47,800 nucleotides of DNA from a virus. Within the stretch, counting starts at the first letter, position 1. Every line of letters starts with the position of its first letter. The stretch lies in UHGV virus genome UHGV-0066790, one strand, 5' to 3'. The notes below the pieces were generated by a model, which saw only the letters and a list, made by a program, of their open reading frames with translations, was not told where the DNA came from and did not search any database. Below are positions 17,655-45,251 of this stretch, piece by piece. The translations under genes and the position numbers were made by a program.

Positions 17655-17657
17655 GGT

Positions 17658-18107: not shown

Positions 18108-18118
18108 GTTTTACCTCA

Positions 18119-19624: not shown

Positions 19625-19639
19625 TGCGCCCTCCTTTTG

Positions 19640-21540: not shown

Positions 21541-21543
21541 GGA

Positions 21544-21957: not shown

Positions 21958-22012
21958 ATCTCTGTATCCCTCCGTTGTTTTGGTCATCATGGCAAAAGAG
22001 CCGGGACGAAAT

Positions 22013-22029
22013 CACCGTGAACAAAGTTC
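22013..22029 (-). promoter_or_regulatory. 17-bp late-operator motif, copy C (CACCGTGAACAAAGTTC)
   Basis: One of three near-identical copies, all upstream of minus-strand late operons. Dyad GAAC-N3-GTTC. Confidence 0.5.
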
Positions 22030-22031
22030 GG

Positions 22032-22346
22032 CTATGCAGCACGGCGAAGGCGGTACTTGCCCAGCATGTTCAGGTCGTTTTTCAGGGCCAGCCGGAAGGC
22101 TTCGATCACGTCGACGTGGTACGCCTTCACGCTCCCGAAACGGCTGTCCTCGATTTCCCGGATTTCGTAATCCATACGGCGGGACATATCGGAAAGCTTG
22201 CGTCCCGCGACGGAGTACGCGGCTGGCGTATCTGCGAAGACGTCAAGGAACCACGGGATGCCCTTCACGGACTTGTAGTCCCTGCCCCGCCCAAGTTCGT
22301 TCTCAAGAGCCGCAGCCTTGCGCACGGCGGCGGAGGCGGTTGCCAT
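22032..22346 (-). CDS. Hypothetical protein
   Basis: 104-aa ORF with ATG start. Protein-like composition. Confidence 0.4.
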   Translation of the reverse strand: MATASAAVRKAAALENELGRGRDYKSVKGIPWFLDVFADTPAAYSVAGRKLSDMSRRMDYEIREIEDSRFGSVKAYHVDVIEAFRLALKNDLNMLGKYRLRRAA

Positions 22347-22410
22347 CGCGGTAGCCTCGCGGCGTGAACCGATTTCAGCCTTGGTGCGGATAGCCTCGTC
22401 GCGCTCGGCT

Positions 22411-22731
22411 TCGATGCTTCCCGTCGCATCGTCACTATACCGCGACCGCGTGAGGGAGCTTGAACGGCTCGAACAGGATTGGATGGAACTTGCAGTCCTG
22501 ATCCGCGACCGCGCTTATGGACTGGAACGAGACTTCCGCCGAGTGACGCAAGGAACGTATCCCGAACTGCTCCGGCATGTATCGCCATCCGGGAAGACGC
22601 CCGTTGCCGCGCTTATCCAGCTCATGACAGCCCCAACCTACACCGCCCGGCAAAACCTCGAATCCGCGCTTGATGATATGCGTCTTGCCATCCGTGCCGC
22701 GAAGACGGCAAACAGGTTGATGCTAGGGTAA
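22411..22731 (+). CDS. Hypothetical helical protein
   Basis: ATG at 22411 in the track ORF 22318..22731. Fills an otherwise 400-bp gap. Divergent from the 22032..22346 gene. Confidence 0.3.
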   Translation, partial: SMLPVASSLYRDRVRELERLEQDWMELAVLIRDRAYGLERDFRRVTQGTYPELLRHVSPSGKTPVAALIQLMTAPTYTARQNLESALDDMRLAIRAAKTANRLMLG

Positions 22732-22786
22732 TCCTTGGCAAGCCTGCATGAATCATATAAGACTTTACCAACGGAGGGATTCCCCC

Positions 22787-23098
22787 ATGCTGCTGTTCGA
22801 TGATGGGAAAAAGCTTGAAAAGGCCGTCGGCGAGGAAGCCGCAAAAGCCATCGTGGAAGTACTGGAACGCTTTGACGAGAGTCAAAGGAACGCCAGTGCC
22901 ACCAAGGGAGATCTGCGCGAAACGGAACTGCGGTTGCAAAAAGAAATTCGGGAATTGGACCTGAAAATGCAAGCGGAGGTCGAAAAAATTCGTGCTGAAG
23001 TGTTGAAGGTCAAGTATGATCTTTTGAAATGGCAAATCGCCATAGGGTTTGCCCTTGTCGCAGTTATGGCCAAGGGCTTCGGCTGGCTCGGATTCTAA
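22787..23098 (+). CDS. Coiled-coil membrane-anchored protein (DUF1640/XhlA-like)
   Basis: RBS GGAGGG. Coiled coil TKGDLRETELRLQKEIRELDLKMQAEVEKIRAEV then a C-terminal TM helix WQIAIGFALVAVMAKGFGWLGF. Confidence 0.45.
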   Translation: MLLFDDGKKLEKAVGEEAAKAIVEVLERFDESQRNASATKGDLRETELRLQKEIRELDLKMQAEVEKIRAEVLKVKYDLLKWQIAIGFALVAVMAKGFGWLGF

Positions 23099-23114
23099 TA
23101 AAGAAAGAATATCG

Positions 23115-23156
23115 TAGAAAAGGGGTGGCTTTAAGAGCCGCCCCTTTTTGTTTTTC
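23115..23156. terminator. Bidirectional rho-independent terminator
   Basis: GGGGTGGCTTTAAGAGCCGCCCC hairpin with GAAAA before and TTTTTGTTTTT after. Confidence 0.6.
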
Positions 23157-23214
23157 TGCCTCTCCCTTCTGTTACTGACGAGTTAAAAAAGATAAAACTT
23201 TTTTTTGAAAAAAT

Positions 23215-23278
23215 TGTTTATTTTTTCAAAAAATGGTGCTATTGTATTTTCAACGAAAGGGACAAAAGGAGAGTTCTC
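23215..23278 (+). promoter_or_regulatory. Promoter/leader P1 with conserved -10/leader motif
   Basis: AT-rich with inverted repeats TTTTTTTTGAAAAAA/TTTTTTCAAAAAA. TATTGT then TTTTCAACGAAAGGGACAAAAGGAGA is shared with P2 at 45273-45322. Confidence 0.4.
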
Positions 23279-23635
23279 ATGATAACCATCACCACAGCCA
23301 ACAACGAAACAACTCTTGAAAACGACAAGGCTTTCTGTGCATATCGTATCGAAACAGAAATCGATTTTGATGAAGATGGTTATGAAGTGGACGGAGAGCA
23401 ATATGTGCTCATCGAAAAGCTTTTTGTTCCCTCAGAGAATCGCGGAAACGGCATTGCCCGCCGCCTTCTTCGTGAAGCCGTCTCTCACGCTCGCGCTACT
23501 TACCCCGGAATGGCGATTCGGTTGGTAGCTGAACCTCTGGATGCCGATACAGATATGGATCGGCTGGTGGCCTTTTATGAAAGCGAAGGTTTTGATGTGA
23601 TCGAAGCTGGCGAAATCGTAGTAATGGAACACTAA
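23279..23635 (+). CDS. Small GNAT-fold acetyltransferase-like protein
   Basis: 118 aa with an acetyl-CoA motif-A-like segment ENRGNGIARRLLREAV. Low GC relative to the flanks. Confidence 0.5.
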   Translation: MITITTANNETTLENDKAFCAYRIETEIDFDEDGYEVDGEQYVLIEKLFVPSENRGNGIARRLLREAVSHARATYPGMAIRLVAEPLDADTDMDRLVAFYESEGFDVIEAGEIVVMEH

Positions 23636-23655
23636 ACAGAACAAAGGAGTAAGAC

Positions 23656-23826
23656 ATGACCCGCTATTCTATCCTGCTCACGACTGGCACAACGGGAACC
23701 ATCGATACCGAACAGCATCTTGAAGAGGGCATGGAAGTAGTCATCACCTTGCACGATGAAAACGGAAACAGAACGCAGGAAACCGGACTCATCGCTGAAA
23801 TTCTTGACGAAGAATTTTTAGGGTAA
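23656..23826 (+). CDS. Small hypothetical protein (56 aa)
   Basis: RBS AAAGGAGTAAGAC then ATG. MTRYSILLTTGTTGTIDTEQHLEEGMEVVITLHDENGNRTQETGLIAEILDEEFLG. Below the track's 60-aa cutoff. Confidence 0.4.
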   Translation: MTRYSILLTTGTTGTIDTEQHLEEGMEVVITLHDENGNRTQETGLIAEILDEEFLG

Positions 23827-23848
23827 TCGAATTAAAAGGAAAAACACC

Positions 23849-24349
23849 ATGAAGCTGTACCACGGAAGCTTGATTGAACATCTGGCTATCTCTAACTCAG
23901 GAACAGGGTTAGGGTATAACTTCGGTGCGGTGTTCTTTGCCCGTACTTACGGACATGCAAAGGAATACGGAAATTACGTCTACCAGTGCGAAATAGACAT
24001 CGAGGACATCTTCTTGAACGAGGATCTCCCGTATCTTGAAGATGGCGCTGCTGGAACGGCTCTACGTGAAGTTATGGCAGAGCGCGGTATAGACGAAAAG
24101 TATTTTGATCTCTGCTGGTATGCCGTGGTTGAAGAGAAAATTGGTTATCAAGATGAAGACTGGGTAAACCTCCTCAACATGGATGACGATGACGCAAGTT
24201 GGGAGGCTCAGGCCATGCGGATCGCCTTTGCCCGTAAGCTCGGCTTCAAGGCTGTTGAAATGGATGACGAATGCGGCAGCATTGCGGTTCTTCCCGAGTT
24301 CATAAAGCTGGAAGCGGCAACGGAGGAATACGATGAAGAGGAAGACTAA
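23849..24349 (+). CDS. LYHGS-motif protein (DUF3990-like putative ART-fold) with acidic tail
   Basis: N-terminus MKLYHGS...GYNFGAVFFARTYGHAKEYG resembles the DUF3990 signature. The C-terminus is Asp/Glu-rich (MDDDDASWE...EEYDEEED). Confidence 0.45.
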   Translation: MKLYHGSLIEHLAISNSGTGLGYNFGAVFFARTYGHAKEYGNYVYQCEIDIEDIFLNEDLPYLEDGAAGTALREVMAERGIDEKYFDLCWYAVVEEKIGYQDEDWVNLLNMDDDDASWEAQAMRIAFARKLGFKAVEMDDECGSIAVLPEFIKLEAATEEYDEEED

Positions 24350-25724
24350 GATAGACATCGACGATCTTATCGATTTCAGTTCAAAGCTGGTGAACTCGAA
24401 TTCCAGCGTCGGTATTCGCTTGTCGTCGGGTGCCGCGCTCGCCCTTCCGTACCTGTCCACGAGGACATGTCTTGCGGCAGGGATTTCTATGCCGCTGGAT
24501 ACGGCAAACGGGGCCAAGGATGTGGGAAAGGTAAGTGCTCTATACAAAAAACTCGAAGAAGGGGAGGAAGGAGAGAAAGCAGATACAGAGGCGGCATTGA
24601 AGAAAATCCGTAAAACAGGATTTGCCAGAAAAACAGAGTCTGTCGACAGACGGATTCGTCAACTGCTCATCCCTAAAGACGTACCCTCTGGGTATGTCTC
24701 TTTGTCTCCCCTCCCCTCCATTGGACTTTCCGTTTTGCTGTTAGGAGCCGTTACAAGGCATAATCAAGATGTCTTTTCAAAAAAGAAGGAAGGTATCAAA
24801 ATTCGACGGGCACATCTCGCTTTGGGCGGGGCAAACCCTCAGAATCTAGGATACGCTGCGTCCAAAAAGGCGATACAATATCCTGTTTTTCTTTCTACAC
24901 CCAAATCCGTGCGCGGAAATGCCAGCCGTCAGGCGTCAGGAAAGGGAACTTACCTGATCCTTTCCAATCTCTTTGTGCAAACGGCAAACATCTTGACGAA
25001 TTATACTATGCTCAACGGCGCGCCCCTCTTTGCAGCATGGGGGATGGGACATGCACTGGAGCGCGAGATGCATGGTCCCAAAGTTACCGGAGTATGCCTT
25101 GTTGTGCATAGCATCGAACCCCTTGGGGAGCATGAAACCGCTATTTTCGAGCCTAGCCAAAGAGTAGGAGCGGCTTTTACTTTTGAAAAATCCCGTAACG
25201 GGAGCGACTACGCAAAAGGCTCCACACATCTCTCTTTGCAGCCCGGTGCAACGGGGCATATACGGGTGAGCCTTATCTTTGAACTGTCGGAAGCCCTGCA
25301 TTCCGTACCGAACGCCGTGGATCTTTTCTTGAACTTCGGAAAGTTCTCCGGTGGGCTGATCACTTCATACGACGCCCCGGCTTTGCATGATGACCGCTCT
25401 ACGCTTCTAGAGTGCATTCCCGCCGGGAAAGTTGTTTTGGATCGGCGCGACGTTATGAGCCCTGGAAACCCCATTGAACAGCTTGTAACCGCGATAGGAA
25501 CGTACAGCGGAAAATGGCTGTCCGCAACGAATATCGGTTTTTCAGCAATCACAGACTTTCAAGTTCGCGGAGGGGCACGGAACGGGTGCCTCCATGCTTT
25601 TGCGGAGCCGCTGATCGGCATTACAGAATACGTCTCTACTGAAAAGAGGATACACGGGTATTTCTGGCGCAGCCAGTGGGAAGAAGATAGCTTTTTGATG
25701 AGGGGAGATTCAACAAATGAATGA
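24333..25724 (+). CDS. Large protein of unknown function (463 aa)
   Basis: Overlaps the upstream stop by 17 nt and the downstream start by 8 nt (ATGAATGA). No recognisable catalytic motif. Confidence 0.55.
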   Translation: MKRKTKIDIDDLIDFSSKLVNSNSSVGIRLSSGAALALPYLSTRTCLAAGISMPLDTANGAKDVGKVSALYKKLEEGEEGEKADTEAALKKIRKTGFARKTESVDRRIRQLLIPKDVPSGYVSLSPLPSIGLSVLLLGAVTRHNQDVFSKKKEGIKIRRAHLALGGANPQNLGYAASKKAIQYPVFLSTPKSVRGNASRQASGKGTYLILSNLFVQTANILTNYTMLNGAPLFAAWGMGHALEREMHGPKVTGVCLVVHSIEPLGEHETAIFEPSQRVGAAFTFEKSRNGSDYAKGSTHLSLQPGATGHIRVSLIFELSEALHSVPNAVDLFLNFGKFSGGLITSYDAPALHDDRSTLLECIPAGKVVLDRRDVMSPGNPIEQLVTAIGTYSGKWLSATNIGFSAITDFQVRGGARNGCLHAFAEPLIGITEYVSTEKRIHGYFWRSQWEEDSFLMRGDSTNE

Positions 25725-25938
25725 TGCACAAGAAAAAAAGCAGGGGGGACGCCGTAAAGGATCTGGACGTAAAAAAAAGGTTGAAAATCGTGCAACAGTA
25801 AAGACTGTATCTATGCCGGATCATGTCTGGGAACGGCTGAACGATGTATGTACAGATAGGGGTATCCTACGCTCACAGGTAGTACGGGAAGCAGTCGAGA
25901 TGTGGCTGGACGCAAATATACAGCAGCTTGGAAAATGA
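25717..25938 (+). CDS. Ribbon-helix-helix (CopG/ParD-like) DNA-binding protein
   Basis: Basic N-terminal arm (KKQGGRRKGSGRKKK), then beta-strand and helix TVKTVSMPDHVWERLNDVCTDRGILRSQVVREAVEMWL. Confidence 0.55.
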   Translation: MNDAQEKKQGGRRKGSGRKKKVENRATVKTVSMPDHVWERLNDVCTDRGILRSQVVREAVEMWLDANIQQLGK

Positions 25939-25951
25939 CGCCTGACTACGT

Positions 25952-25992
25952 AAAGAAAGCCCCAACCGCCTGTTTAACGGTTGGGGCTTTCG
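25952..25992. terminator. Bidirectional terminator between the island and the capsid gene
   Basis: AAAGAAA, then GCCCCAACCGCCTGTTTAACGGTTGGGGC hairpin, then TTTCG. Confidence 0.55.
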
Positions 25993-26011
25993 CATGGAGG
26001 GAAGGATGGGA

Positions 26012-27025
26012 CTAGGCTCCAGTCATTTGCGCAAAGGCAAAGGGCATGAGCACGATACCGCCGTAGGTGGTGCCGACGAACTTCTGACGGAAGCTGGACA
26101 GGTCGGGCACGACGCGTCCAGCACGCATCTTTTCTCCGAAGGCCAGCGTGCCGGATCGCTGCCCGTTCACTTCGGGGGCGATGAGGAACATGGTTTCCCC
26201 GGCGGTCATGCTGTGCAGCTCGGGGACGGTCACGATGTCAATGCGGGTGAAGTACCGCTTCAACATATCCAGCACGGACACGTTGAAATCGGTAGCCGCG
26301 CCGAGGCGAACGGCCAGTTCGGGGGAGAGGCAGAGCTTGAGGGGCGTGTCTTTGTCAATAAGGCCGCTGGACTGCTCGGAAAGCTGTGCGAACAGGGCGA
26401 GGACGTCGTTGTAGATTTGCACCGTGGTCTTGTCGGCCCATTTCGTGGAGCCGCCCGTGCCCGTGGCCCCTGCGGTGATCGCAGCAGGGAGGTTCGGATC
26501 GTTGAGGATGCCGTAGATTTCCTTCCCGGCGACGCCGAGCAGGTAGAAACGGTTCTGGTCGATGTCGATGACGTTGGCGGCCGCACGCTGCTTGGAGGCA
26601 GCGAGGTTGACTTTCGCCGTGCTCGACATGTCCACTTCAAAGTCTCCGTAGGTGATGGACGTCTGGAAGACGTACTGCACGCGGGTTTGCCATTCGGAGT
26701 TCACGCCCGAAGTCGTGCCGTTGGCATAGTCGGAATACGGCTCGGTCTTTCCGGTCATTTCGTCCACGCGCCACTTCATGTACGGGGTCGTCCAATCGCC
26801 CTTCTTCTCTTCACCGAAGATTTCACGGGCGCGCCGGGGCGCGGTCAGGATTTCGATGACCATCGGGTCGATATACGCCAGAAGCTCGGCGGGGACGGTC
26901 GTGTTCGGAGTAGTGATGAGCGCGGCGTCCTGCGCAATGCGGGCGCGGTTCTCCGGAGTTGCCCACATGCGGGCGCCCGGGAAGATAAAGCCGTAGCGCT
27001 TGGCCTGTTCAAAAGTCGGATTCAT
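26012..27025 (-). CDS. Major capsid protein
   Basis: 337 aa, last gene of the portal-scaffold-capsid operon. Confidence 0.65.
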   Translation of the reverse strand: MNPTFEQAKRYGFIFPGARMWATPENRARIAQDAALITTPNTTVPAELLAYIDPMVIEILTAPRRAREIFGEEKKGDWTTPYMKWRVDEMTGKTEPYSDYANGTTSGVNSEWQTRVQYVFQTSITYGDFEVDMSSTAKVNLAASKQRAAANVIDIDQNRFYLLGVAGKEIYGILNDPNLPAAITAGATGTGGSTKWADKTTVQIYNDVLALFAQLSEQSSGLIDKDTPLKLCLSPELAVRLGAATDFNVSVLDMLKRYFTRIDIVTVPELHSMTAGETMFLIAPEVNGQRSGTLAFGEKMRAGRVVPDLSSFRQKFVGTTYGGIVLMPFAFAQMTGA

Positions 27026-27035
27026 GTAGTACCTC

Positions 27036-27674
27036 CTACGCTCCGGCGGCGGCTGCGCCGAGGTTGGTGCGGGCCTGTTCCGCAGTGGTTGCGCCAGTTC
27101 CGCCGTTGGCCACGCCGAGCGCTCCGGTGGCGTTGCTGAAATCTTTCTGCATCAGGTTCGAGGTGTCGCCGCCGGATCCCGACGCTGCGGCCTGTCCCCA
27201 ATTGCTGATGATGATCGGTTCCCCGATTTCGCCGGGCGTCTTGACGACCCACCCCGTATCGAGGTGCGTGGCGTCGGGGGTCCCGGTGCTGATTGAACCG
27301 TCAGCGGTGGAGGCAAGGACAGCCTGCCCCACCGTGGCCTTGGTCGTGGAAACGGCCCAATAGTCGCCCTTTACGGCCACGGTGAGGTTCGAGCCTGCCG
27401 GGACGGTCAAAGTGCCGTCAGAAAGCAGTTCGTAGTTCACGTAGTTGATGACGCGCTCCACGAAGCCGAGCACGGCTGTGGCGGTGCCAGCAACGTTGGT
27501 GGCCTGCGTGTTGTCGATCACGCCGGAATCCACGACGGGGAAGACGAAGCGCCCCACAGGGAGGGCCACCGCCGCCAGAGGGTTGAGCGGGGTGTAGATG
27601 CTCTGGTCGGGCGTCGCTTTATCGCCAGCAACGCCGGGAGCGACGGAGAGATTGACTTGGGACTGCAAAGGCAT
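27036..27674 (-). CDS. Head decoration/fiber-like protein
   Basis: RBS AGGAGGCACACC then ATG (MPLQSQV...). C-terminal fiber-collar-like motif ANGGTGATTAEQARTNLG. Confidence 0.45.
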   Translation of the reverse strand: MPLQSQVNLSVAPGVAGDKATPDQSIYTPLNPLAAVALPVGRFVFPVVDSGVIDNTQATNVAGTATAVLGFVERVINYVNYELLSDGTLTVPAGSNLTVAVKGDYWAVSTTKATVGQAVLASTADGSISTGTPDATHLDTGWVVKTPGEIGEPIIISNWGQAAASGSGGDTSNLMQKDFSNATGALGVANGGTGATTAEQARTNLGAAAAGA

Positions 27675-27684
27675 GGTGTGCCTC

Positions 27685-29400
<1,716 letters not shown>

Positions 29401-30183
29401 CTAGTCTCCAAATTCAGGAATAACGGCCCGGTACGTGCATTGGCACCCCGGAAGCTCACCGCAAAGCACTTTGCGCTTCACGTCAGAGTCGTAAAGACCT
29501 TCCGTGATGACGAACTTTTTCCCATTCATGAGCTGGTGGGTATGGCGGCTCGTTTTCTTTCCCGGCACATGTACCCAGATGCCTTCGGTGATGCCGAGTT
29601 CCTTGTCCTGCACCCGCTTAAGGGCCTCGGTCGCCTTATTGGACTGGTCGCGGGCAATGAATTCTGCCCGGCGCCGGGTGATCTCGTACCGCTTGTGCAG
29701 TTCGTCGGCGAGGAACTCCACGTCCCGGCCCATGCTGGCGGAACGCTGTACTAGCCCCGTTACTTCCGTGAAATAGTGCTGCGGAATGGATTTGATGAGA
29801 TTGACATTTTCCTCGAAGAGGGCCCGCGCCACGTCGCTCATGGCCCTGCTTCCCTCCATCCTCACCGTGAAGCCCGCATCTTTGAGGGCCTGCCTCATGC
29901 TGGCTTCCGTGCGCCGCCTCGTACTGCCCACGAACTCCCGTGCAAAACTCTCCGCGCTTTCCCTCCACCGCTTCGTCCAGTACCGGAACAGGCTCTTGAG
30001 GCGGTCTTGTAGGTCACTCGCCGGGGACGCATCCTGTGCTATGCGGGTTTCCTGCTTCCTGTACTCGGCGCGCAGCCACCACACGACGGAACGCTGCATC
30101 TCGTCGAGAAGCGACACCAGCCGCTTCCGGTATTTCGCCCGGATGCCCGCGTTGGGCTTGATGGCGCGGATGACCTTAGCCAT
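29401..30183 (-). CDS. Head morphogenesis protein (Mu gpF / SPP1 gp7 family)
   Basis: RRAEFIARDQSNKATEALKRVQDKELGITEGIWVHVPGKKTSRHTHQLMNGKKF matches the Phage_Mu_F pattern. Confidence 0.7.
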   Translation of the reverse strand: MAKVIRAIKPNAGIRAKYRKRLVSLLDEMQRSVVWWLRAEYRKQETRIAQDASPASDLQDRLKSLFRYWTKRWRESAESFAREFVGSTRRRTEASMRQALKDAGFTVRMEGSRAMSDVARALFEENVNLIKSIPQHYFTEVTGLVQRSASMGRDVEFLADELHKRYEITRRRAEFIARDQSNKATEALKRVQDKELGITEGIWVHVPGKKTSRHTHQLMNGKKFVITEGLYDSDVKRKVLCGELPGCQCTYRAVIPEFGD

Positions 30184-31720: not shown

Positions 31721-31753
31721 GTGCCCATAATGCTACGAGCCAAAAAGAAAACA

Positions 31754-31770
31754 CACCGTGAACAAGGTTC
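31754..31770 (-). promoter_or_regulatory. 17-bp late-operator motif, copy A (CACCGTGAACAAGGTTC)
   Basis: About 34 nt upstream of the portal start codon. Confidence 0.5.
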
Positions 31771-31856
31771 GGGGGGCTTGGCTGTGGGACACCTTTCATA
31801 TTGTATCAATATAGATTAATCTATATATACATGGATACCTTTAGGGAGGTATCCGC

Positions 31857-32603
31857 ATGTACAAAAGCATCATGGTGTTTCTGCTGGCCGCGCTGGTTAT
31901 GACGTCCGAGGCGCAGGCCGCGGGCAACGAATGGAACGATTCGTTCAGCAAGGCCAAGAAGACGCTGGAACGGCAGGTCTATTATGACCATCGGATCACG
32001 CTCTACTGCGGGGCGGCGTTCGACGAGAAGAAGAACGTCACCCTGCCGGAGGGTTTTACTGCCGCGAAGCACGAGAAGCGGGCCGGGAAGGTGGAATGGG
32101 AACACGTGGTCCCCGCCGAGAACTTCGGGCAGGCTTTTCCGGAGTGGCGCGAGGGGGACGCACAGTGCGTGGACGCGAAGGGGAAGGCATTCAAGGGCCG
32201 CAAGTGCGCGGAAAAGGTGAACCGGGAATACCGCCTCATGCAAAGCGACATGTACAACCTCTATCCGGCCATCGGTGCGGTCAACGCCCTGCGCCAGAAT
32301 TACAACTTCCAGATGCTGCCCGGCGAGGAGCCGGATTTCGGAAGCTGCGGGATGAAGATCGCCGACCGCAGGGCCGAGCCGCCCGTCCGGGCGCGGGGAC
32401 AAATTGCCCGGACCTACAAGTATATGGCCGACGCCTACGCCCCGCGCTACCGCATGAGCCGCCAGCAGACGCAGCTCATGGACGCATGGGACAAGATGTA
32501 TCCGGTTGATGCGTGGGAATGCACGCGGGCCAGACGTATTGAAAGACTACAAGGTAACGAGAACCCTTTTGTGAAGGAAAGATGTCAAGAAGCAGAACTC
32601 TAA
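31857..32603 (+). CDS. endA: Secreted endonuclease I (EndA family)
   Basis: Signal peptide MYKSIMVFLLAALVMTSEAQA. Blocks VEWEHVVPA, SDMYNLYPA, EPPVRARGQIARTYKYM and SRQQTQLMDAWDKMYPVDAWECTRARRIERLQGNENPFVKERCQ closely match E. coli EndA. RBS AGGGAGGT. Confidence 0.85.
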   Translation: MYKSIMVFLLAALVMTSEAQAAGNEWNDSFSKAKKTLERQVYYDHRITLYCGAAFDEKKNVTLPEGFTAAKHEKRAGKVEWEHVVPAENFGQAFPEWREGDAQCVDAKGKAFKGRKCAEKVNREYRLMQSDMYNLYPAIGAVNALRQNYNFQMLPGEEPDFGSCGMKIADRRAEPPVRARGQIARTYKYMADAYAPRYRMSRQQTQLMDAWDKMYPVDAWECTRARRIERLQGNENPFVKERCQEAEL

Positions 32604-32617
32604 CTCTTTACATTCAT

Positions 32618-35600
32618 TTATATTCTCCTTCCCATACGTGGCTGATTGAGGATGGCGGGGTTGATGCACATGGGCCGCTTGGTATCGAAATCACGCAGCG
32701 CCTGTGTTGTGGCGTCCACTTGGTCGTCGTGGGGCGCACCGGGGAACTGTGTCAGTTCCGCGACGTACTCCCGCGCCCACGGGCAATGCTCAGGGTGCGG
32801 GAGCAGGACGTTCCCGGCCTCGAAGAACGTGGTCACGGCATGGGCCCGGGCCGTCTTGCTGCCGTCCGGCTCCACGGGGATGATACCGGGCACAGCATGT
32901 TTCAGCGCGTCGATAACCGCCGGGCCGTTGGCCTTATCCTCCACCAGCTTACGGGCTGCGCCGGGCCATTTAGCGGCGAGCGCCCGGAACGCGGCGACCG
33001 TATCCGTAAATCCCATGCGCCGCCGGACCTGATCGAGGAGGTAGCGGTCGGCCCCCTTGCGGCCCCACACCTGCCCCACAACAAAGTCGGTATCGTCGCC
33101 GTCTTTGAACGTCATATCCCACGAGATAAGGAGCTGGTCGAACTGCTCCGGAAGGTCTTTGGGGAGCCAGAACCGCAGCCACTCGGATTTGAATATGGCG
33201 CCGCCGTCTGGCGTAGGCCGCTGCTGGTACAGGGCTTCCCAGTCGCGTGTGCCGAGGGCTTTCTTAATGGCAAGAAGCTGCTCCAACGGGTAGCGTTCAG
33301 GGTGTAAGGCTTCACCTGCCCTACGGTGCAGCTCGTCTTCCGTTGCGATGGCGGGGAAGTTCACTACGCGCCAGTGGTCGCCCTCCCCCCGTGCGGCGGC
33401 CTCAAGCAGCCGCCCTGAGAGGTCAGCCATGTGCCAGCGAGTGTTGATGATGAGCACCCCTCCACCGGGCGCGAGGCGCGTGTACAGCGTGGACGTGTAC
33501 CAGTCCCAGACGTTCTGGCGGATGGTCGGGGAATCGGCGGACGCCCGGTCCTTGAACGGGTCGTCGATGATAGCGCAGTTGTGGACAAGGACACCGCCGG
33601 CAAAGAAGTTCTGATTACGTGCTACTTGGATATCAACAAAACGGCGTGCTGTTCCGTATATTCGCGCAATGTTGGCAATATGTCCCGCTTGTACTGTTCT
33701 TCTTTCATGCCGTGCAAGATCCTGTGGCACTTGCTGCACAGCGTAATCAAGTTTGTCGCAACATTGTTGATCGGAATAAGATCCATGTGATGAACCTCCA
33801 ACCGTGTTTCCTCCTTGCCACATAGAACACAACGATGCTGATCCCTGTCTAAAATCAAAGGCCGAAACTGTCGGAATGCCCGCGCAGAGTGCACCTGTTC
33901 CCGCAAGGGAGTCATGCCGTGACGGTATCGGGGATTCCCCTTGCCAGACATCAGAATAGAGTGTGCAATTTCGCTGCACCGCTTGCTGCAATACTTGGCA
34001 AAAATACCGCGTCCCCTGTGGGCAGACATAAAGAGCTTGTTGCAGATAGGGCAAATTTTTTCTCTGGGCTGATGCTCGACAGGGACCTGGCTCGGCTTCT
34101 TGAATTTTGCGGCACATTCCGGGCAGGTCTTTGCCCCTTTGGTTCTCCCTGTGTGTTTGATGATCCGTCCACAACCGGGGCACGTCTTGCTGTTCTTGAC
34201 TGCATGATGGGCACAAGAATGTTCCTTGCAGCAGTAGAAATCTTTCATCCCCTTCCTGATATTTTTGGCCACCACATAAGCCGGCCTCACAAACTCCAGG
34301 CCACACCAGGCACAAGATAGGATCACCCGTGGCAATTGATGATGCAGGGGTATATTCCCCCCGTGAAAAGATCGGATGGTTTCCTGTAACTTCAAGAACT
34401 CTGCCAAGGGCATCGCGTAATCGGTAGCTTTCTTCTGCATATCGATCCTTTACCGCTATCACTATATCAGTTTCAATTTCCCCCGTTTGATGATTGTATG
34501 ATAGCACGTTATCCCCGACTTGTAGGGTCTCGATAGCGCGATCTCCGTCAGGAGTCGCAATTTGTGTTCCAATGACAACGCATTCCGCACCCATGCCCGT
34601 GATGCCGCCGCCCACGCCAGCGGAACGGTAGCAGCCAGCGTGCCCCACCACCTCGAATATGTCCGAATTGCGGAGGTAGGAGCCGTTCCCGACTGTGCGG
34701 ATGTTCTTGCCGTACAGCGCCGTGCCGGGAAAAAGTTCCCGATATTCCGGGCTGTCGATGACGCGCTGCACGTCGCGGTTCATGCGCGAGGACAGGTCGG
34801 CGGCGTAGCTTGTGGAGATAATGGAGAGATCGGGGTAACGGCCCAAGGCGTAGGCCGGGAAACGGCGGGAGGCCAGCTCGCTATTGTGGGTTATCGTAAG
34901 GTGTTTGCCAACTAAATATAAGCCATCTGGACTATCCACCTGAATACAATTCCCCATTTTAGGCGACTCTAGCGCTCGTACACATTTGATGGATACGCGC
35001 CGACGCAGAGAAGAAAACGTTTTATTAACTTTTTTCCGTTCAAGTCTGCACGGGACAACTACACCGGAAAAGAAAAATGACACCACATAAACCTGTGACT
35101 TATTTTTAATCGTTCTTTCCCGATTATCTAGTGCTGGGATATTTGTATGCGCTACAAACCCGCATAGCATGGCCAATTCTTCTACATCATGCGCTAACAG
35201 CTCATTGGATGTTGTAAAACGATATCTGTTTGTCTTTCTATCAAAATGACCATCCGTATCAATAAGTCCAGCAAGCAAGTCAAGCCTGTTTTCTAGGCTA
35301 TCATGCTTGTACTCATTAGGAATATGTTTATTTTTTAGCAGATCAGCATCTTTTAGAGCCTGCGAAAATATATTTCTTCTATTTTTCACGCCGCTGGCAA
35401 ATGAAAAAGTTTCAACTCCAGTATCTCTATGCACCCATGTTCCAGTTATTGGCACACCTAGTCGTTCAAACTCCATTTTGACGACACAAGCGTCATCAGG
35501 AGCCATGTTTATTCTGGGCGCGATTGACGTTCCATCACCTAACCACACGCCCAAAACGTATGGCGGGATAACGTGTTCTACGGCAGGCCATTGGGGAGCA

Positions 35601-36151
35601 TCAGCTGTGTCCACCTGATACAAATACCTGTGCCCTCTGGTGTCTGGGATACCGCTATCCAGCTTCCTAAGCGCCTTAGTTTTTTTGCTTGGCTCCACAA
35701 AGTATCGTGTCTCAACTGTTCTATATCCGGGTTTAGTCCTGTCATACACCCGCCACTCATGATCAAGGTGCACATCTATTATGTCGCCATTGGTAAAAAC
35801 AACAGAATGAGTGGCAAAATTTTTCTCGCCCACAGCAACAACCCTCACAGGTTTGCCACTTGGGTGAAATACATAATCACCAACCTTAAGCGCACCATGA
35901 GTTTTCCACCCATCAACCGTCAAAACAGGAGTATCATCAGCGCACAGTTTCCCATGTCGCGGCGGCATGGTCAGCATGAGGCGCGGGGAACGTCCGGCCA
36001 CGACATCGGCAAGGAAGGCGTCCAGCTCGGAACAGATTTCCTCATGCACCCATCCCATCTTGTAGCCGGGCATGGTGTAGCGCACGAAGGCCGCGAGGCA
36101 ACTCCGGGCCAGCGCCTTCCTGATGTCGGCAAGGATGGATGGGCTACTCAT
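32618..36151 (-). CDS. terL: Terminase large subunit interrupted by two inteins
   Basis: Exteins: residues 1-69 (…MPPRHGKL, P-loop), 424-523 (…GHAGCYRSAGVGGGITGMGAE), 859-1177 (CAIIDDP... nuclease domain with HDDQVDATTQAL). Confidence 0.8.
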   Translation of the reverse strand: MSSPSILADIRKALARSCLAAFVRYTMPGYKMGWVHEEICSELDAFLADVVAGRSPRLMLTMPPRHGKLCADDTPVLTVDGWKTHGALKVGDYVFHPSGKPVRVVAVGEKNFATHSVVFTNGDIIDVHLDHEWRVYDRTKPGYRTVETRYFVEPSKKTKALRKLDSGIPDTRGHRYLYQVDTADAPQWPAVEHVIPPYVLGVWLGDGTSIAPRINMAPDDACVVKMEFERLGVPITGTWVHRDTGVETFSFASGVKNRRNIFSQALKDADLLKNKHIPNEYKHDSLENRLDLLAGLIDTDGHFDRKTNRYRFTTSNELLAHDVEELAMLCGFVAHTNIPALDNRERTIKNKSQVYVVSFFFSGVVVPCRLERKKVNKTFSSLRRRVSIKCVRALESPKMGNCIQVDSPDGLYLVGKHLTITHNSELASRRFPAYALGRYPDLSIISTSYAADLSSRMNRDVQRVIDSPEYRELFPGTALYGKNIRTVGNGSYLRNSDIFEVVGHAGCYRSAGVGGGITGMGAECVVIGTQIATPDGDRAIETLQVGDNVLSYNHQTGEIETDIVIAVKDRYAEESYRLRDALGRVLEVTGNHPIFSRGEYTPASSIATGDPILCLVWPGVCEAGLCGGQKYQEGDERFLLLQGTFLCPSCSQEQQDVPRLWTDHQTHRENQRGKDLPGMCRKIQEAEPGPCRASAQRKNLPYLQQALYVCPQGTRYFCQVLQQAVQRNCTLYSDVWQGESPIPSRHDSLAGTGALCAGIPTVSAFDFRQGSASLCSMWQGGNTVGGSSHGSYSDQQCCDKLDYAVQQVPQDLARHERRTVQAGHIANIARIYGTARRFVDIQVARNQNFFAGGVLVHNCAIIDDPFKDRASADSPTIRQNVWDWYTSTLYTRLAPGGGVLIINTRWHMADLSGRLLEAAARGEGDHWRVVNFPAIATEDELHRRAGEALHPERYPLEQLLAIKKALGTRDWEALYQQRPTPDGGAIFKSEWLRFWLPKDLPEQFDQLLISWDMTFKDGDDTDFVVGQVWGRKGADRYLLDQVRRRMGFTDTVAAFRALAAKWPGAARKLVEDKANGPAVIDALKHAVPGIIPVEPDGSKTARAHAVTTFFEAGNVLLPHPEHCPWAREYVAELTQFPGAPHDDQVDATTQALRDFDTKRPMCINPAILNQPRMGRRI
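33578..34582 (-). mobile_element. Intein 2 (Hint domain) in the terL Walker B site
   Basis: Begins CVVIGTQIATPDG, block B TGNHPIF, ends FVDIQVARNQNFFAGGVLVHN before Cys. The central region in the terL frame is low-complexity. Confidence 0.6.
33622..34440 (-). CDS. HNH endonuclease with Zn-ribbon repeats, encoded in a different frame inside intein 2
   Basis: Multiple CxxC pairs. C-terminal HNH motif CVLCGKEETRLEVHHMDLIPINNVATNLITLCSKCHRILHG. Frame is +1 relative to terL. Confidence 0.65.
   Translation of the reverse strand: MQKKATDYAMPLAEFLKLQETIRSFHGGNIPLHHQLPRVILSCAWCGLEFVRPAYVVAKNIRKGMKDFYCCKEHSCAHHAVKNSKTCPGCGRIIKHTGRTKGAKTCPECAAKFKKPSQVPVEHQPREKICPICNKLFMSAHRGRGIFAKYCSKRCSEIAHSILMSGKGNPRYRHGMTPLREQVHSARAFRQFRPLILDRDQHRCVLCGKEETRLEVHHMDLIPINNVATNLITLCSKCHRILHGMKEEQYKRDILPTLREYTEQHAVLLISK
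34883..35944 (-). mobile_element. Intein 1 (Hint + double LAGLIDADG homing endonuclease) in the terL Walker A site
   Basis: Begins CADDTPVLTVDGW, contains LGVWLGDGTS and LLAGLIDTDGHF, ends ...VGKHLTITHN before Ser. Confidence 0.7.
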
Positions 36152-36680
36152 GATCCGGCGTTTTGAAGGCTTCCTTCGTCAGGCGAAGCAGCTCGTCCGG
36201 GGAGAGGCGTGAGAGATCCACCGGACGCTGAGAGAGGGAACCGTCGGATGAAGTGTGATCCAAGGCGGTTTTGTCCACGATGCCCCACGCCTTGCGCTCT
36301 CCCTCCTGCCGGATCTTAATCGTCTCGGCGGTAATCTTGGCGAGCTTGGCCTTGTCGAAGCTGCCTTCGGACAACGCCTCATCCATAATGGCCTGATGCC
36401 GATCCCACTCCCGCTGATGGCGGGTGATGACGGCGGCCTTGGCTTCGGCGGCGCGGTCCAAGGCTTCGGCCTTTTTTTGAGGGTTGCAGCCTGCAACCAC
36501 GCCCGCAACCTTGGCCTCTGCCATGCGGTTCACGGTGCCGGAAATATCCTGCACCCAGCCTTCGGCCCGGATGCGCTTTTGGATGGCCGTCCGGCTCACA
36601 CCGTACCGCTTGGACAGATCGGACTGGCTCGCCCCCACTTCGTATTCGGCCCGGATGGATTCCCAATCAAATCGTGCCAT
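36144..36680 (-). CDS. terS: Terminase small subunit
   Basis: N-terminal HTH SQSDLSKRYGVSRTAIQKRIRAEGW. Overlaps the terL start by 8 nt. Confidence 0.6.
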   Translation of the reverse strand: MARFDWESIRAEYEVGASQSDLSKRYGVSRTAIQKRIRAEGWVQDISGTVNRMAEAKVAGVVAGCNPQKKAEALDRAAEAKAAVITRHQREWDRHQAIMDEALSEGSFDKAKLAKITAETIKIRQEGERKAWGIVDKTALDHTSSDGSLSQRPVDLSRLSPDELLRLTKEAFKTPDHE

Positions 36681-36901
36681 ACACTACACCCAATACAGGC
36701 ACCCCGAAAAGAAACTCACCTTTCGCCATGAAATATCAGCCCTGCCATGCTCTACCGAGAGTCTTCCCCGCTAAGGGCGGCCCGCTACTCTCGCCTAGAC
36801 GCGGACCTCTTCAAAAGAAAGGCGGCTGTTTATCCGTTACTCCCGGATGGTCCGGGACGATCGGCGGCCGGGGTGAAATGCCGCCATGACGATTGTGCAA
36901 A

Positions 36902-37372
36902 CTATACCTTGTGTGACAAATCGACGCATTCATCACCGCGGAACGGGCACAGCTTCGCGTGCTTTCTGCGCGTCTCCGGGTCCATGGTCTTGCGTATGTC
37001 GTTGATGTCGTCCGGGTTCATGAGATCAACCACGGACAGGCCGAGGCGCTTCAAAATCCACTGCTTAACCGTCTCCCCTCCGAGTCCTGCCAGCACCACG
37101 GCCCCGGCAATCTGCATTTCCGGCGTCACGTCGGGAACCACAAGCGGCAGAAGAAGCACACACCCCACGGCAAGGGACGTGGTCAAAACGGCGTTCAGAA
37201 GTACCGTCACGACCTTCTGCGCCCGCGTGCGCTGTTTGTACCCACGCTTGAGCTGATGCAGCGCAGAAGCCAGTGCGATAGCCCCGGCGAGGGATATAAG
37301 CGGCCACGTCCCGCGCACGGCTTCGATGTATTCGGCGGCATGGTCAGCGCCTTCCTTCCCTACCTGATTCAT
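36902..37372 (-). CDS. Holin (three TM segments)
   Basis: ATG (MNQVGKEG...). Hydrophobic helices LISLAGAIALASAL, VVTVLLNAVLTTSLAVGCVLLLPLVV, IAGAVVLAGLG. Last gene of the lysis cassette. Confidence 0.5.
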   Translation of the reverse strand: MNQVGKEGADHAAEYIEAVRGTWPLISLAGAIALASALHQLKRGYKQRTRAQKVVTVLLNAVLTTSLAVGCVLLLPLVVPDVTPEMQIAGAVVLAGLGGETVKQWILKRLGLSVVDLMNPDDINDIRKTMDPETRRKHAKLCPFRGDECVDLSHKV

Positions 37373-37653
37373 CGGCCTGCCTCCCCCGTCACATCGTATA
37401 TCCACTGCGCAAGGCGTCCGGCGTCACTGCTGTCCATCCACACGCCCGGCGTCCCGTTCAGTTCCAGACGTTGCAGGCTTGTCAGGACTGGAAGCGCCGG
37501 CACTTCCTGGGTTGAGCTGAGATATGAGCACCCCGGCACCATCAGAAGCAACACTACGGCGGAACTCAGCAGCGCGGGCCGCGTCCGCCTTTTCCAGCAG
37601 GCGCAGGCCCAGCTGCAAGAGAGCCGAGAGAAAAGCCGCCCACGCGTCCACAT
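37369..37653 (-). CDS. Putative lipoprotein (o-spanin-like)
   Basis: Basic n-region then LLSSAVVLLLMVPGC lipobox-like motif. Start overlaps the upstream stop. Confidence 0.35.
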   Translation of the reverse strand: MWTRGRLFSRLSCSWACACWKRRTRPALLSSAVVLLLMVPGCSYLSSTQEVPALPVLTSLQRLELNGTPGVWMDSSDAGRLAQWIYDVTGEAGR

Positions 37654-37943
37654 CACTTCCCCATGACCTGCTTCACGGCCTGCTGAACTTCCGGGGCCTT
37701 GCCGTCCGCCACGGCGCCCTTGTTCTGCCCGAAATGTGCGGCAAGGGCGTGCGTCCAGCGGTAGAAGACGGCATAGGCCCCGGACGTTTCTTTGGGCACG
37801 GGAAGCCAGATGGTCGCGACGGCAGCCACACCGCACAGGGACATGAGCACGGCGACGGCGGTGACGATCCACGAGGCTTCGGGGTACTGCGCGGCAAGGC
37901 TTGCCAGTGTCGAAAAAAGGAAATCAATCACGGTCTGTTCCAT
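37653..37943 (-). CDS. Holin-like membrane protein (two TM segments)
   Basis: ATG (MEQTVIDFLFSTLASLAAQY...WIVTAVAVLMSLCGVAAVATIWL). Start overlaps the endolysin stop. Confidence 0.45.
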   Translation of the reverse strand: MEQTVIDFLFSTLASLAAQYPEASWIVTAVAVLMSLCGVAAVATIWLPVPKETSGAYAVFYRWTHALAAHFGQNKGAVADGKAPEVQQAVKQVMGK

Positions 37944-38329
37944 CAGTATTTGCCTCCCTGCTGGTAGAACGCCACGTCGCGCGGCTTGTCCGGGTCGTTG
38001 TCCACATGAATCCATGTCGGGGCCAGCTCAATGCGCCGGAATCCGGCCTCAAGCAGGGCTTGCAGCATGGTGAAACGGGAATGGGAATCCACACAGCGGA
38101 TGTCCACGGCGTAACCTCTCGTATGGGCGGAGGTGGGCACGCCGCCGACCGCCTTGTTGTGCTTCGGACAGCGGTAGGCGGAAGAAAGGGGGAACGGGAT
38201 GCCCGCCAGATCGCGGGCCTCGTCGAGCATCTGGAGCAGGTCGGCGTCCATCTTCTCCATGCCCGCACCGCACCCGCACTTGCAGCGGAATTCGACCGGG
38301 GAGAAGTGGCGCAAGGGAAGAACAGCCAT
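37943..38329 (-). CDS. Endolysin, peptidase M15 (L-Ala-D-Glu/D-Ala-D-Ala peptidase) family
   Basis: RBS AGGAGGA. Motifs SAYRCPKHNKAVGG, SAHTRGYAVDI, H..D metal ligands. Confidence 0.65.
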   Translation of the reverse strand: MAVLPLRHFSPVEFRCKCGCGAGMEKMDADLLQMLDEARDLAGIPFPLSSAYRCPKHNKAVGGVPTSAHTRGYAVDIRCVDSHSRFTMLQALLEAGFRRIELAPTWIHVDNDPDKPRDVAFYQQGGKY

Positions 38330-38377
38330 AAAAAATATCCTCCTGCGTCCACTCTCGCACAAGAGAATAGGGGGAGG

Positions 38378-38394
38378 ACACCGTGAACAAGGTT
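38378..38394 (-). promoter_or_regulatory. 17-bp late-operator motif, copy B (CACCGTGAACAAGGTTC)
   Basis: Lies between the C-like activator stop and the endolysin start, about 50 nt upstream of the endolysin ATG. Coordinates are approximate (+/-1). Confidence 0.5.
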
Positions 38395-38787
38395 CTACAA
38401 CAGCCGATATTGCTGCTGTGGTTCCGGGGTCCCGCAAAGCTGCTTTTTGAGCCGACGGACGTACCTGGTGGTCACGCCAAGGGCTTCGGCGATGGCGTCC
38501 GGCTTCTCCCCTGCTTCCAGACGGGACAGGATACGTCCTTTGAACGGTTCACCACGGCGCAGGTTGGGCACGACGATCTGCATCCCCCCAAATTTTGTAC
38601 AGAGGGCCGCCATACGCTGCCGACCAAGCAACTTCAGAAGAAAACCTGTGGGCTTCCGGGGGATAAAGCATGAACGTCCACCGCACTGTGCGCAGAGGAT
38701 GACCGCCCCCACGTCACCGATGGCCTCTGACAGTTCGAACTGGCTCACCCACACGTCACTCATGAGCACCAACCTCGTGTTCCCCAA
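38395..38787 (-). CDS. Mor/C-family transcriptional activator (late activator C-like)
   Basis: C-terminal HTH AIAEALGVTTRYVRRL. Central FGGMQIVVPNLRRGEPFKGRILSRLEAGEKPD. Track start is TTG; an internal ATG is also possible. Confidence 0.6.
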   Translation of the reverse strand: MGNTRLVLMSDVWVSQFELSEAIGDVGAVILCAQCGGRSCFIPRKPTGFLLKLLGRQRMAALCTKFGGMQIVVPNLRRGEPFKGRILSRLEAGEKPDAIAEALGVTTRYVRRLKKQLCGTPEPQQQYRLL

Positions 38788-45227: not shown

Positions 45228-45251
45228 AGAAGAAAATTTTGCTTTTTTCTC

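Follow-up and report, generated by a model that had tools for sequence, protein, structure and literature searches.

The late promoters of phage Mu that depend on the activator C (Plys, PI, PP and Pmom) carry a −10 but no −35 hexamer, and C acts through a 16-bp element centered at −43.5, within a required region spanning −52 to −34 (PMC2582627). Its sites are imperfect dyads of 5-6-5 design. Mor, a protein of the same family, acts at the promoter Pm, where a 16-bp site centered at −43.5 (PMC4390567) replaces the −35 element, and drives a separate middle operon encoding C. According to one report, both proteins engage DNA as tetramers composed of two dimers (bioRxiv 10.1101/2025.05.02.651988).

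Here we describe a similar arrangement of several late operons in a phage of another kind. The 47.8-kb window, by which we mean the whole stretch of DNA that was analyzed, holds a temperate E217-like myovirus, a prophage of Bilophila wadsworthia. Its structural genes are E217/XM1-like, and it carries a tyrosine integrase (6550–7608), ERF, SSB, a PrimPol-helicase, a replication initiator and RusA. A preliminary description had proposed a Mu-type cascade, but by its gene content the phage is not of the Mu type: it has no transposase, and neither the MuA/MuB transposition genes nor the Mu-type head module by which a Mu-like phage is recognized. Unlike Mu, it is therefore a non-transposable, integrase-carrying phage, and its host belongs to the Desulfovibrionaceae. 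The late genes relevant to this analysis are as follows.

32618–38329, minus strand: lysis-terminase operon (M15 endolysin, small lysis ORFs, both terminase subunits)
37943–38329, minus strand: M15 endolysin, in the lysis-terminase operon
36144–36680, minus strand: small terminase subunit, in the lysis-terminase operon
32618–36151, minus strand: large terminase subunit, intein-bearing, in the lysis-terminase operon
26012–31720, minus strand: portal-capsid operon (portal, Mu F-like protein, DUF2213, cement protein, major capsid protein), followed by a terminator hairpin at about 25955–25995
8112–21957, minus strand: head-tail/tail operon (phrog_2085 protein, DUF4054, DUF3383 sheath, tube, tape measure, baseplate hub, DUF2612 wedge, tail-fibre chaperone)

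A repeated box ahead of three late operons

Each of the three operons is headed by a 17-bp box, GAACYTTGTTCACGGTG on the coding (minus) strand, of which the window contains exactly three copies. Each copy is followed at 21 or 22 nt by a −10-like hexamer.

38379–38395, minus strand: box copy 3, GAACCTTGTTCACGGTG, putative upstream element of the lysis-terminase promoter
38351–38356, minus strand: weak −10-like GAGAGT, 22 nt past box 3, preceded by TGTGc
31754–31770, minus strand: box copy 2, GAACCTTGTTCACGGTG, putative upstream element of the portal-capsid promoter
31727–31732, minus strand: −10-like CATTAT, 21 nt past box 2
22013–22029, minus strand: box copy 1, GAACTTTGTTCACGGTG, putative upstream element of the head-tail/tail promoter
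21986–21991, minus strand: −10-like CATGAT, 21 nt past box 1, preceded by TGc

An exact scan with the plus-strand form, CACCGTGAACAARGTTC, returned these three positions, while 100 dinucleotide-preserving shuffles yielded 0 matches to the 17-mer; allowing up to three mismatches added no further box in the 47.8-kb window, where 0.18 would be expected. The scan bears out the preliminary description in its main claim, namely three copies in one orientation, each ahead of a minus-strand late operon; two of the copies lie where it had placed them (22013 and 31754), while the third begins at 38379 rather than 38378. The boxes are co-oriented with the downstream genes and stand 33, 49 and 55 nt ahead of the first gene in each operon, close to the 35–55 nt given earlier. 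The copy that adjoins the stop codon of the activator gene (act122, described below) is the third and not, as had been stated, copy B: the TAG of that gene ends on the first G of the box. A truncated BRO-type antirepressor gene precedes box 1, which lies 2 nt past its stop codon.

The box had also been described as a dyad with the core GAAC-N3-GTTC. This sub-dyad, with a center-to-center distance of 7 bp, is found in all three copies, but it is not strictly kept in related phages, where GAAT variants at the lysis promoter break it. By itself it is statistically unremarkable (four matches versus 0.92 expected, a count reached by 2 of 100 shuffles). When the box is divided in the 5-6-5 manner of Mor/C operators (AACCT-TGTTCA-CGGTG), only three of the five half-site positions are complementary, short of a Mor/C-type dyad, and another weak dyad that can be drawn (ACCnTG..CAnGGT) pairs at 5/7 positions. 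What all promoter classes conserve is the complete 17-mer, which is essentially asymmetric, and not GAAC-N3-GTTC; in contrast with the imperfect dyads bound by Mu C, it is nearly invariant. The three sites have no RNA structure in common, which points to a signal at the DNA level.

No consensus σ70 promoter was called at any of the three box sites, and no TTGACA-like −35 hexamer lies 16–18 nt upstream of the −10-like hexamers. With the hexamer taken as −12 to −7, the box spans approximately −50 to −34 and is centered at about −42, compared with −43.5 in Mu. A −10 without a −35 and a conserved element of about 16–19 bp over roughly −52 to −34 is the layout of the Mu late promoters (PMC2582627), and the geometry of box and −10 agrees with that of the Mor/C-dependent (class II-like) promoters of Mu (PMC2582627, PMC4390567).

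The distances from box to start codon differ among the three operons. The ATG at 21957, served by the Shine-Dalgarno sequence GGAGGG, lies 55 nt from copy 1, and a second ATG further upstream in the same frame, at 21990, lies 22 nt from it; from copy 3, 49 nt lead to the endolysin ATG at 38329. Transcription is predicted to start near 21979 for the head-tail/tail operon and near 38344 for the lysis-terminase operon. The portal ATG (31720), 33 nt from copy 2, lies exactly 6 nt after CATTAT and lacks a Shine-Dalgarno sequence, from which the portal mRNA is predicted to be leaderless; unlike Mu, the phage has no mom-type promoter.

The same architecture recurs outside the window. An exact-match scan of IMG/VR returned 101 occurrences of the box at 68 loci (104 with the three window copies), and 98 of the occurrences fall in relatives of this phage. 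Box and hexamer are kept in dozens of related Bilophila phage contigs despite changed surroundings, and in all promoter classes the spacer between them varies in sequence but is constant in length. At the portal promoter, the box is kept behind at least five unrelated upstream flanks, and all variants read CAT(T/G)AT, 6 nt, ATG, without a Shine-Dalgarno sequence; the recurrence of this spacing in every portal variant makes a start on the A of the ATG likely. At the lysis promoter, the hexamer varies (GAGGGT, CAGAGT, GAGATT, AAAAGT), but its second base is always A and its sixth always T. In the window, the lysis promoter has a poor −10 (GAGAGT), which counts against an activator-box reading. 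Two classes of box found in relatives are absent from the window: one precedes a BRO-type antirepressor gene, past a cargo block and terminator, with CATCAT at 21 nt, and in the other, ahead of the baseplate module, the hexamer reads CATAGT or CATACT.

Two Mor-family proteins in one operon

Directly upstream of the lysis-terminase promoter lies the gene of a small protein that the preliminary description had assigned to the Mor/C family, an assignment favored on balance by profile searches, which also identified a second family member 0.85 kb further upstream.

38395–38763, minus strand: act122, 122 aa, of the Mor/C family, with an HTH at the C-terminus (GVTTRYVRRL)
39616–40035, minus strand: Mor139, a 139-aa Mor-family paralogue, 0.85 kb upstream of act122

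The open reading frame of act122 extends over 38395–38787, but translation most likely begins at the ATG at 38763, since all homologues in the alignment begin with MS(D/E)VW. act122 matches PHROG 836, "late transcriptional activator," at E 1.1e-12; its score against Pfam Mor (PF08765), 20 bits, lies under the gathering cut-off of 24.9, while all 15 of the 15 aligned members of its family match Pfam Mor (best, 1.1e-7). Mor139 scores above the cut-off (39.1 bits, E 8.3e-10, for the 184-aa ORF 39616–40170) and matches PHROG 836 at E 3.8e-22. The two proteins are 25% identical over the N-terminal part (BLASTP E 2e-5).

Both have the size and layout of Mor/C proteins (about 100–150 aa, N-terminal dimerization region, strand linker, basic C-terminal HTH). 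The GGxx(I/V)x(I/V)P strand is found in each, the first 30 residues carry a net charge of −3 in act122 and −2 in Mor139, the last 50 carry +5 in both, and the HTH helices of both are invariant among relatives. The predicted secondary structure of act122 comprises H8-27, E31-34, H40-58 and E61-64 followed by three C-terminal helices (mean pLDDT of the predicted structure, 81.6). A Foldseek search with the act122 monomer model placed Mor (1RR7) at rank 37 (E 3.2), below generic HTH matches only; since Mor is an intertwined dimer, the monomer model is a poor probe for 1RR7. A profile search of PDB sequences reached 1RR7 only at E 0.52.

The two genes belong to a coupled string, Mor139-RusA-orf60-orf86-act122, with Mor139 first and act122 last. 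Its stop/start junctions, read directly, are ATGA, TAATG and 8-nt overlaps, and in one relative (L074) the string continues upstream of Mor139 without a gap, equally packed. Wherever the upstream region is available, Mor139 is co-encoded with act122. Between the two genes there is no sign of a middle promoter and no non-coding room for one, and the search turned up neither a conserved non-coding island nor another repeated motif, although a promoter may be buried in the coding sequence. The cascade suggested earlier, Mor followed by C, is unsupported in view of this coupling and of the missing middle promoter: in Mu, Mor drives a separate operon encoding C, whereas here Mor139 and act122 are coupled in one operon.

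As in Mu, a small Mor/C-family activator gene lies just upstream of the lysis gene, with the first late promoter directly after it. Uncultured phages that are truly Mu-like (loci L076–L079, Mu-type genomes with GemA, Mu gp27, Portal_Mu, Mu-like protease and gpT) carry homologues of act122 with 37–39% identity in the same position, between GemA and the lysozyme gene. There the operator is likewise repeated at the lysis and head-gene promoters, the dyads CCCGA-ACCATA-TCGGG and CCTGA-ACAATA-TCAGG preceding the genes for lysozyme and for the Mu-like protease, and at the head promoter a hexamer is again followed by 6 nt and ATG. Unlike the box, this operator forms a perfect dyad of 5-6-5 layout (CCYGA-ACMATA-TCRGG), found only in these two copies in 15 kb and lying 24 nt from the hexamer, and only one Mor-family gene was seen in the 5 kb upstream. 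The recognition helix of these homologues reads DVTQRYVEYV, compared with GVTTRYVRRL in act122; operator and helix both differ between the groups, suggesting that operator and protein change together.

Candidate readers of the box

These observations suggest a model in which the box is most likely the activator-binding element of the three late promoters and is bound by a Mor/C-type activator, act122 being the favored candidate. We infer both that a protein binds the box and which protein it is, as well as the starts and the activation of transcription. The early/replication operon would end with two Mor/C-family genes, and one of their products, most probably act122, would occupy the box (approximately −50 to −34), substitute for the missing −35 hexamer much as Mor does at Pm and C at Plys, PI, PP and Pmom, and recruit the host σ70-type RNA polymerase to a weak −10 located 21–22 nt downstream. 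The lysis-terminase, portal-capsid and head-tail/tail operons would in this way be turned on together. Counting against this reading are the Pfam score of act122 under the Mor cut-off, the weak recovery of 1RR7 in the fold and profile searches, and the asymmetry of the box, set beside the clear 5-6-5 dyads used by Mor, C and the distant relatives; Mor139, whose HTH is equally invariant, may also be the binder in place of act122. Support for act122 comes from box 3, which overlaps its stop codon and not that of Mor139. Contigs in which the act122 orthologue is only 66–78% identical and the endolysin is of another family still have the exact box after that stop codon, and no other 14-mer is common within the gene.

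That Mor139 binds the box instead, with act122 having a different target or an auxiliary role, appears unlikely. Mor139 is the stronger Mor-family match of the two (Pfam and PHROG 836 scores above), is always co-encoded with act122 where this can be seen, and keeps its HTH helix, GLSERQVWRILKQ, invariant between relatives that are 73–74% identical overall and retain the same box. However, the lineage directly adjoining the first late promoter is that of act122, in the distant Mu-like phages as well as here; in those phages, the 5 kb upstream showed no second Mor-family gene, and a different act122-type helix goes with a different operator.

A mixed oligomer of act122 and Mor139, each reading one half of the asymmetric 17-mer (GAACYTT... 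and ...CACGGTG), is more doubtful still. The box lacks the clean dyad that promoters served by a single homologue display; the two proteins are translationally coupled and thus made together, their recognition helices are each invariant but different, and the tetramers of two dimers reported for Mor and C leave room for mixed assemblies (bioRxiv 10.1101/2025.05.02.651988). Against this, the idea is drawn purely from one asymmetric and one symmetric example, the two paralogues of Mu act separately, and the asymmetry of the box is equally explicable by contacts of RNA polymerase (σ region 4 or the α C-terminal domain) with its promoter-proximal part.

Least probable is that the box is a conserved boundary between modules that promotes recombination among related phages, or is the target of a host factor or an unrecognized σ factor: homology among relatives does begin abruptly at its 5' edge, cargo genes are inserted directly upstream of box copies, and its GAAC is similar to the −35 core of ECF-type promoters, but the spacing to the −10-like hexamer and start codons is constant, the orientation is uniform, the box is absent elsewhere in the window, exact matches in metagenome and viral contigs unrelated to this phage sit inside long ORFs as expected of chance, no conserved ECF-type −10 (CGT) occurs at 16–17 nt, the ORFs scanned showed neither a σ-factor nor an anti-terminator domain, and a boundary role is in any case compatible with a promoter role.

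Proposed late control in Bilophila prophages

Recognition of the box by a Mor/C-type activator, most probably act122, would not overturn current understanding, as this type of phage switch is already known and the example, though well supported, is a fairly ordinary one; it would place Mor/C-type late control outside the transposable phages. The asymmetric box with two paralogues here and the perfect dyad with one protein in the Mu-like phages form a small natural experiment on operator recognition by Mor/C proteins. A mixed oligomer, if true, would mean that the late genes fire only when both paralogues are present, an undescribed mode in a family whose known members are homo-oligomers on dyads. 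The promoter and its activator may also offer a compact inducible pair for use in Desulfovibrionaceae. For the phage itself, the analysis provides a map of late-gene control, with three putative promoters, predicted starts and two candidate activators, that covers a prophage family common in Bilophila wadsworthia, a pathobiont of the gut for which phage genetics is almost lacking.

Genome organization and cargo

The window is the complete genome of a temperate phage that is not transposable, and its host is Bilophila wadsworthia. The sole match to the activator act122, a 122-aa protein of the Mor/C family, in GTDB representative genomes belongs to B. wadsworthia ATCC 49260 and shows 95% identity; the prophage of this strain lies on contig NZ_JNJP01000012.1. 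The order of its genes is as follows.

Left arm, plus strand: ERF, SSB, Gp157 and a tyrosine integrase (6550-7608)
21957 down to about 8112, late region: E217/XM1-type myovirus head-tail, sheath, tube, tape-measure and baseplate operon
22748-25938, plus strand: cargo block of low GC
31720 down to 26012, late region: portal, Mu F-like protein, DUF2213, cement protein and major capsid protein
Late region: M15 endolysin, small lysis ORFs, small terminase subunit and intein-bearing large terminase subunit (32618-36151)
Coupled string, minus strand: the 139-aa Mor-family paralogue Mor139 (39616-40035), RusA, orf60, orf86 and act122 (38395-38763)
Early operon, minus strand: replication initiator and PrimPol-helicase (40511-42301), then the tightly coupled string

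Two nearly identical 23-nt terminator-like hairpins (GGCCCCGACAAGGGGCYTTTTTA) are found near the two ends, on the left at 440-462, after the first ORFs, and on the right at 47703-47725, after the HNH endonuclease gene (47142-47726), as would fit a whole phage genome that is circularly permuted in the window. Ten tandem 15-nt units at 8-253 on the plus strand encode a pentapeptide-repeat protein. The large terminase subunit (32618-36151, minus strand) reaches 1177 aa owing to intein-type insertions, a LAGLIDADG/Hom_end segment at residues 277-374 and a Hint/Intein_splicing segment at about 524-858; in relatives the protein has about 490 aa or only part of the insertions.

Within the cargo block, a 463-aa ORF (24333-25724, plus strand) matches Cas8f over residues 10-193 (E 2.7e-20) and, fused to it, Cas5f over residues 208-453 (E 1.8e-21), with a further match to Pfam Cas_Csy2. 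No Cas7f, Cas6f or Cas3 was found near this ORF, which is flanked by small ORFs of unknown function and a GNAT acetyltransferase (23279-23635); the phage thus has an orphan type I-F Cas8/Cas5 fusion among its cargo. The promoter region of the block contains a 32-nt sequence (23230-23261) that resembles a tandem pair in the divergent early/immunity region (45233-45264 and 45265-45296; 66-75% identity). These copies may be repressor operators, in which case cargo expression would be tied to lysogeny.

The box and the predicted promoters it heads

The 17-nt box reads CACCGTGAACAARGTTC on the plus strand and GAACYTTGTTCACGGTG on the coding minus strand, and occurs exactly three times in the window, at 22013-22029, 31754-31770 and 38379-38395. 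The preliminary description had correctly recognized three sites, with the third displaced by one nucleotide (38378 for 38379), and had placed the second against the activator stop codon; the copy touching that stop is the third. A whole-genome scan bore out the restriction of the motif to these three positions: the box was matched in 0 of 100 dinucleotide-preserving shuffles, tolerating up to three mismatches added no site in the window, and a window-wide search with the 12-nt core and two mismatches revealed no further minus-strand site placed as a promoter element would be. The repeat is real and highly non-random.

Downstream of each copy, on the minus strand, the following elements were identified.

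Copy 1: 21 nt, CATGAT, a 28-nt leader with GGAGGG, ATG at 21957
Copy 2: 21 nt, CATTAT, GGGCAC, portal ATG at 31720, without a Shine-Dalgarno sequence
Copy 3: 22 nt, GAGAGT (preceded by TGTGc), a 21-nt stretch with AGGAGG, endolysin ATG at 38329

None of the three hexamers has a −35-like hexamer 16-18 nt upstream, and a consensus promoter scan gave no call at any of the three box sites. Setting the hexamer as −12 to −7 places the box at about −50 to −34, the same geometry as that published for the activator-dependent promoters of Mu. The Mu late promoters have a 16-bp C site centred at −43.5, a required region from −52 to −34, and −10 hexamers with no −35 (PMC2582627), and in Pm of Mu a 16-bp Mor site, also centred at −43.5, takes the place of the −35 element (PMC4390567).

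Other promoter types were rejected by eye, there being no conserved CGT-type −10 at 16-17 nt as for an ECF-type promoter and no GG-N10-GC as for a sigma-54-type promoter. An explanation through RNA structure was likewise discarded: only copy 1 folds well, using private upstream sequence, copies 2 and 3 fold no better than shuffles, and no structure is common to the three sites. The copy 1 hairpin (22013-22050, minus strand) pairs TCGCCGTG ... CACGGTGA, is stable (−22 kcal/mol, z = −3.7), lies at the end of an antirepressor remnant and is absent from the other copies.

Conservation of the box among relatives

Scanned for exact matches, IMG/VR yielded 68 loci, which with the window make 104 box occurrences in 65 distinct contexts. 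Relatives of the window phage, with structural proteins usually >90% identical, account for 98 of the 104; three occurrences resemble chance hits, falling within open frames (145-576 codons) of contigs unrelated to the phage. The matches listed in a metagenome scan comprised the same family classes and, in addition, many unrelated ones within long ORFs of environmental contigs, such as a 17-mer would be expected to give in so large a collection. No close relative was found in the INPHARED phage collection, where the sole match was 167 nt of terminase sequence shared with Pseudomonas phages. The orientation of the box relative to the downstream genes is constant within the phage family, where it falls into these classes:

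Relatives and window: before the head-tail gene
Relatives and window: before the portal gene
Relatives and window: after the activator gene
Not in window: ahead of a BRO-type antirepressor gene, full-length and immediately upstream of copy 1, CATCAT at 21 nt
GGTA variant: TATCCT at 22 nt
Other relatives: before the baseplate module, CATAGT or CATACT

Across classes and variants the upstream flanks are unrelated (the portal promoter alone has at least five versions), and the spacer differs in sequence while its length stays at 21-22 nt; within the hexamer, positions 2 (A) and 6 (T) are constant. Every variant of the portal promoter retains the arrangement of hexamer, 6 nt and ATG, lending independent support to the −10 assignment and predicting a leaderless portal mRNA.

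The box itself varies naturally at six positions (C to T at 4 and 13, C or T at 5, T to C at 6, T to G at 16, and G to A at 17), so the GAAC/GTTC sub-dyad is not inviolable. The dyad core GAAC-N3-GTTC first proposed as the heart of the motif is broken in GAAT variants and could not be upheld as stated; conservation applies to the 17-mer as a whole. More diverged contigs, with an act122 orthologue of only 66-78% identity and an endolysin of another family (Phage_lysozyme in place of M15), still have the exact box after or overlapping the activator stop codon. The window and the diverged relative L074 have no 14-mer in common within the act122 gene, but share all of the 18 nt next to it.

The surroundings of copies 1 and 2 are variable. 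ORFs just upstream of copy 1 (22032-22588, minus strand) are the 3' remnant of a BRO-type antirepressor gene of about 267 aa, which most relatives retain intact, with a separate box of its own at 861-876 bp upstream of copy 1 (compare 5364-6254 in L021), this box class coming after a cargo block and a terminator; the window has lost the promoter and the 5' part of the gene. The large terminase/portal junction (31771-32617) is a cargo hot spot, as is the equivalent position in L070, L071, L073 and L083; the antisense-oriented genes found there differ between relatives, being a phrog_6861 protein in the window (31857-32603, plus strand) and elsewhere a ParA-like ATPase, Endonuclease_1, or nothing. 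Copy 2 always directly follows this junction.

Candidate binders and proposed late control

Both Mor-family proteins match PHROG 836, ‘late transcriptional activator’ (act122, 1.1e-12; Mor139, 3.8e-22). Mor139 passes the Pfam Mor cut-off and act122 scores 20 bits, under the cut-off of 24.9; all 15 members of the wider act122 family match PF08765, and the two proteins are 25% identical over an N-terminal ‘GG..I.IP’ region. In the act122 model (pLDDT 81.6), helices at the N-terminus are followed by short strands and, at the C-terminus, by an HTH of three helices. Mor was not convincingly recovered by a Foldseek PDB search with this model or by a PDB profile search, the latter being weak.

Genomic contexts of distant act122 homologues were taken from the contigs encoding them. 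P0164 and P0173 (37-39% identity to act122) occur in true Mu-like phages, where they are encoded between GemA, which they follow directly, and the lysozyme gene, just as C is placed in Mu. Over 15 kb, their loci contain exactly two copies of another motif, one ahead of the lysozyme gene and one ahead of a Mu-like protease gene (L076, 5471-5486 and 13144-13159; L078, 5746-5761 and 13333-13348). This motif is a perfect 5-6-5 dyad, CCCGA-ACCATA-TCGGG and CCTGA-ACAATA-TCAGG (CCYGA-ACMATA-TCRGG), the two sites differing by a symmetric C/G to T/A change; a hexamer lies 24 nt downstream, and the protease-gene ATG 6 nt past the hexamer. The Mor/C operators described for Mu have this format. In these uncultured Mu-like phages the dyad is a clean predicted operator for C-like activators. 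Single-protein queries with P0015 and P0021 gave no matches in viral contigs, the siphovirus-type homologue P0044 (L080/L081) showed no motif repeated between its two intergenic regions, and P0179 (L082), located inside a tail module, was uninformative.

The recognition helix reads DVTQRYVEYV in the Mu-like group and GVTTRYVRRL in the Bilophila group. Operator and act122-type protein thus change together between groups, and they are fixed together within the Bilophila group, which is the best available, though not decisive, argument for act122 as the binder. Mor139 was weighed in the same role, its helix being as invariant within the Bilophila group as that of act122, as was a mixed oligomer of the two paralogues reading the asymmetric box. 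Two further readings, a mere recombination boundary and a site for a host factor or sigma factor, are both disfavoured: the box keeps one orientation and a constant distance to −10 hexamers and start codons, and no sigma or anti-terminator gene was present among the ORFs scanned.

The box is best read as the predicted operator of a Mor/C-type activator at late promoters, as the preliminary description had suggested, a reading well supported by promoter anatomy and comparison. The Mu-type cascade attached to it (Mor, then C, then late promoters) is not supported: the five genes from Mor139 to act122 have overlapping stop and start codons, the genes upstream in L074 are packed likewise, a window-wide repeat search found no second repeated motif for Mor139 or a middle promoter, and words shared between the window and L074 reflect only coding conservation, with no conserved non-coding island. 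In the simplest reading, both paralogues would be distal products of the early operon, and the late promoters would fire once they accumulate. Late control here would work similarly to that of Mu and through the same protein family, in a phage that is not Mu-like and whose host is a member of the gut Desulfovibrionaceae; its general interest is modest.
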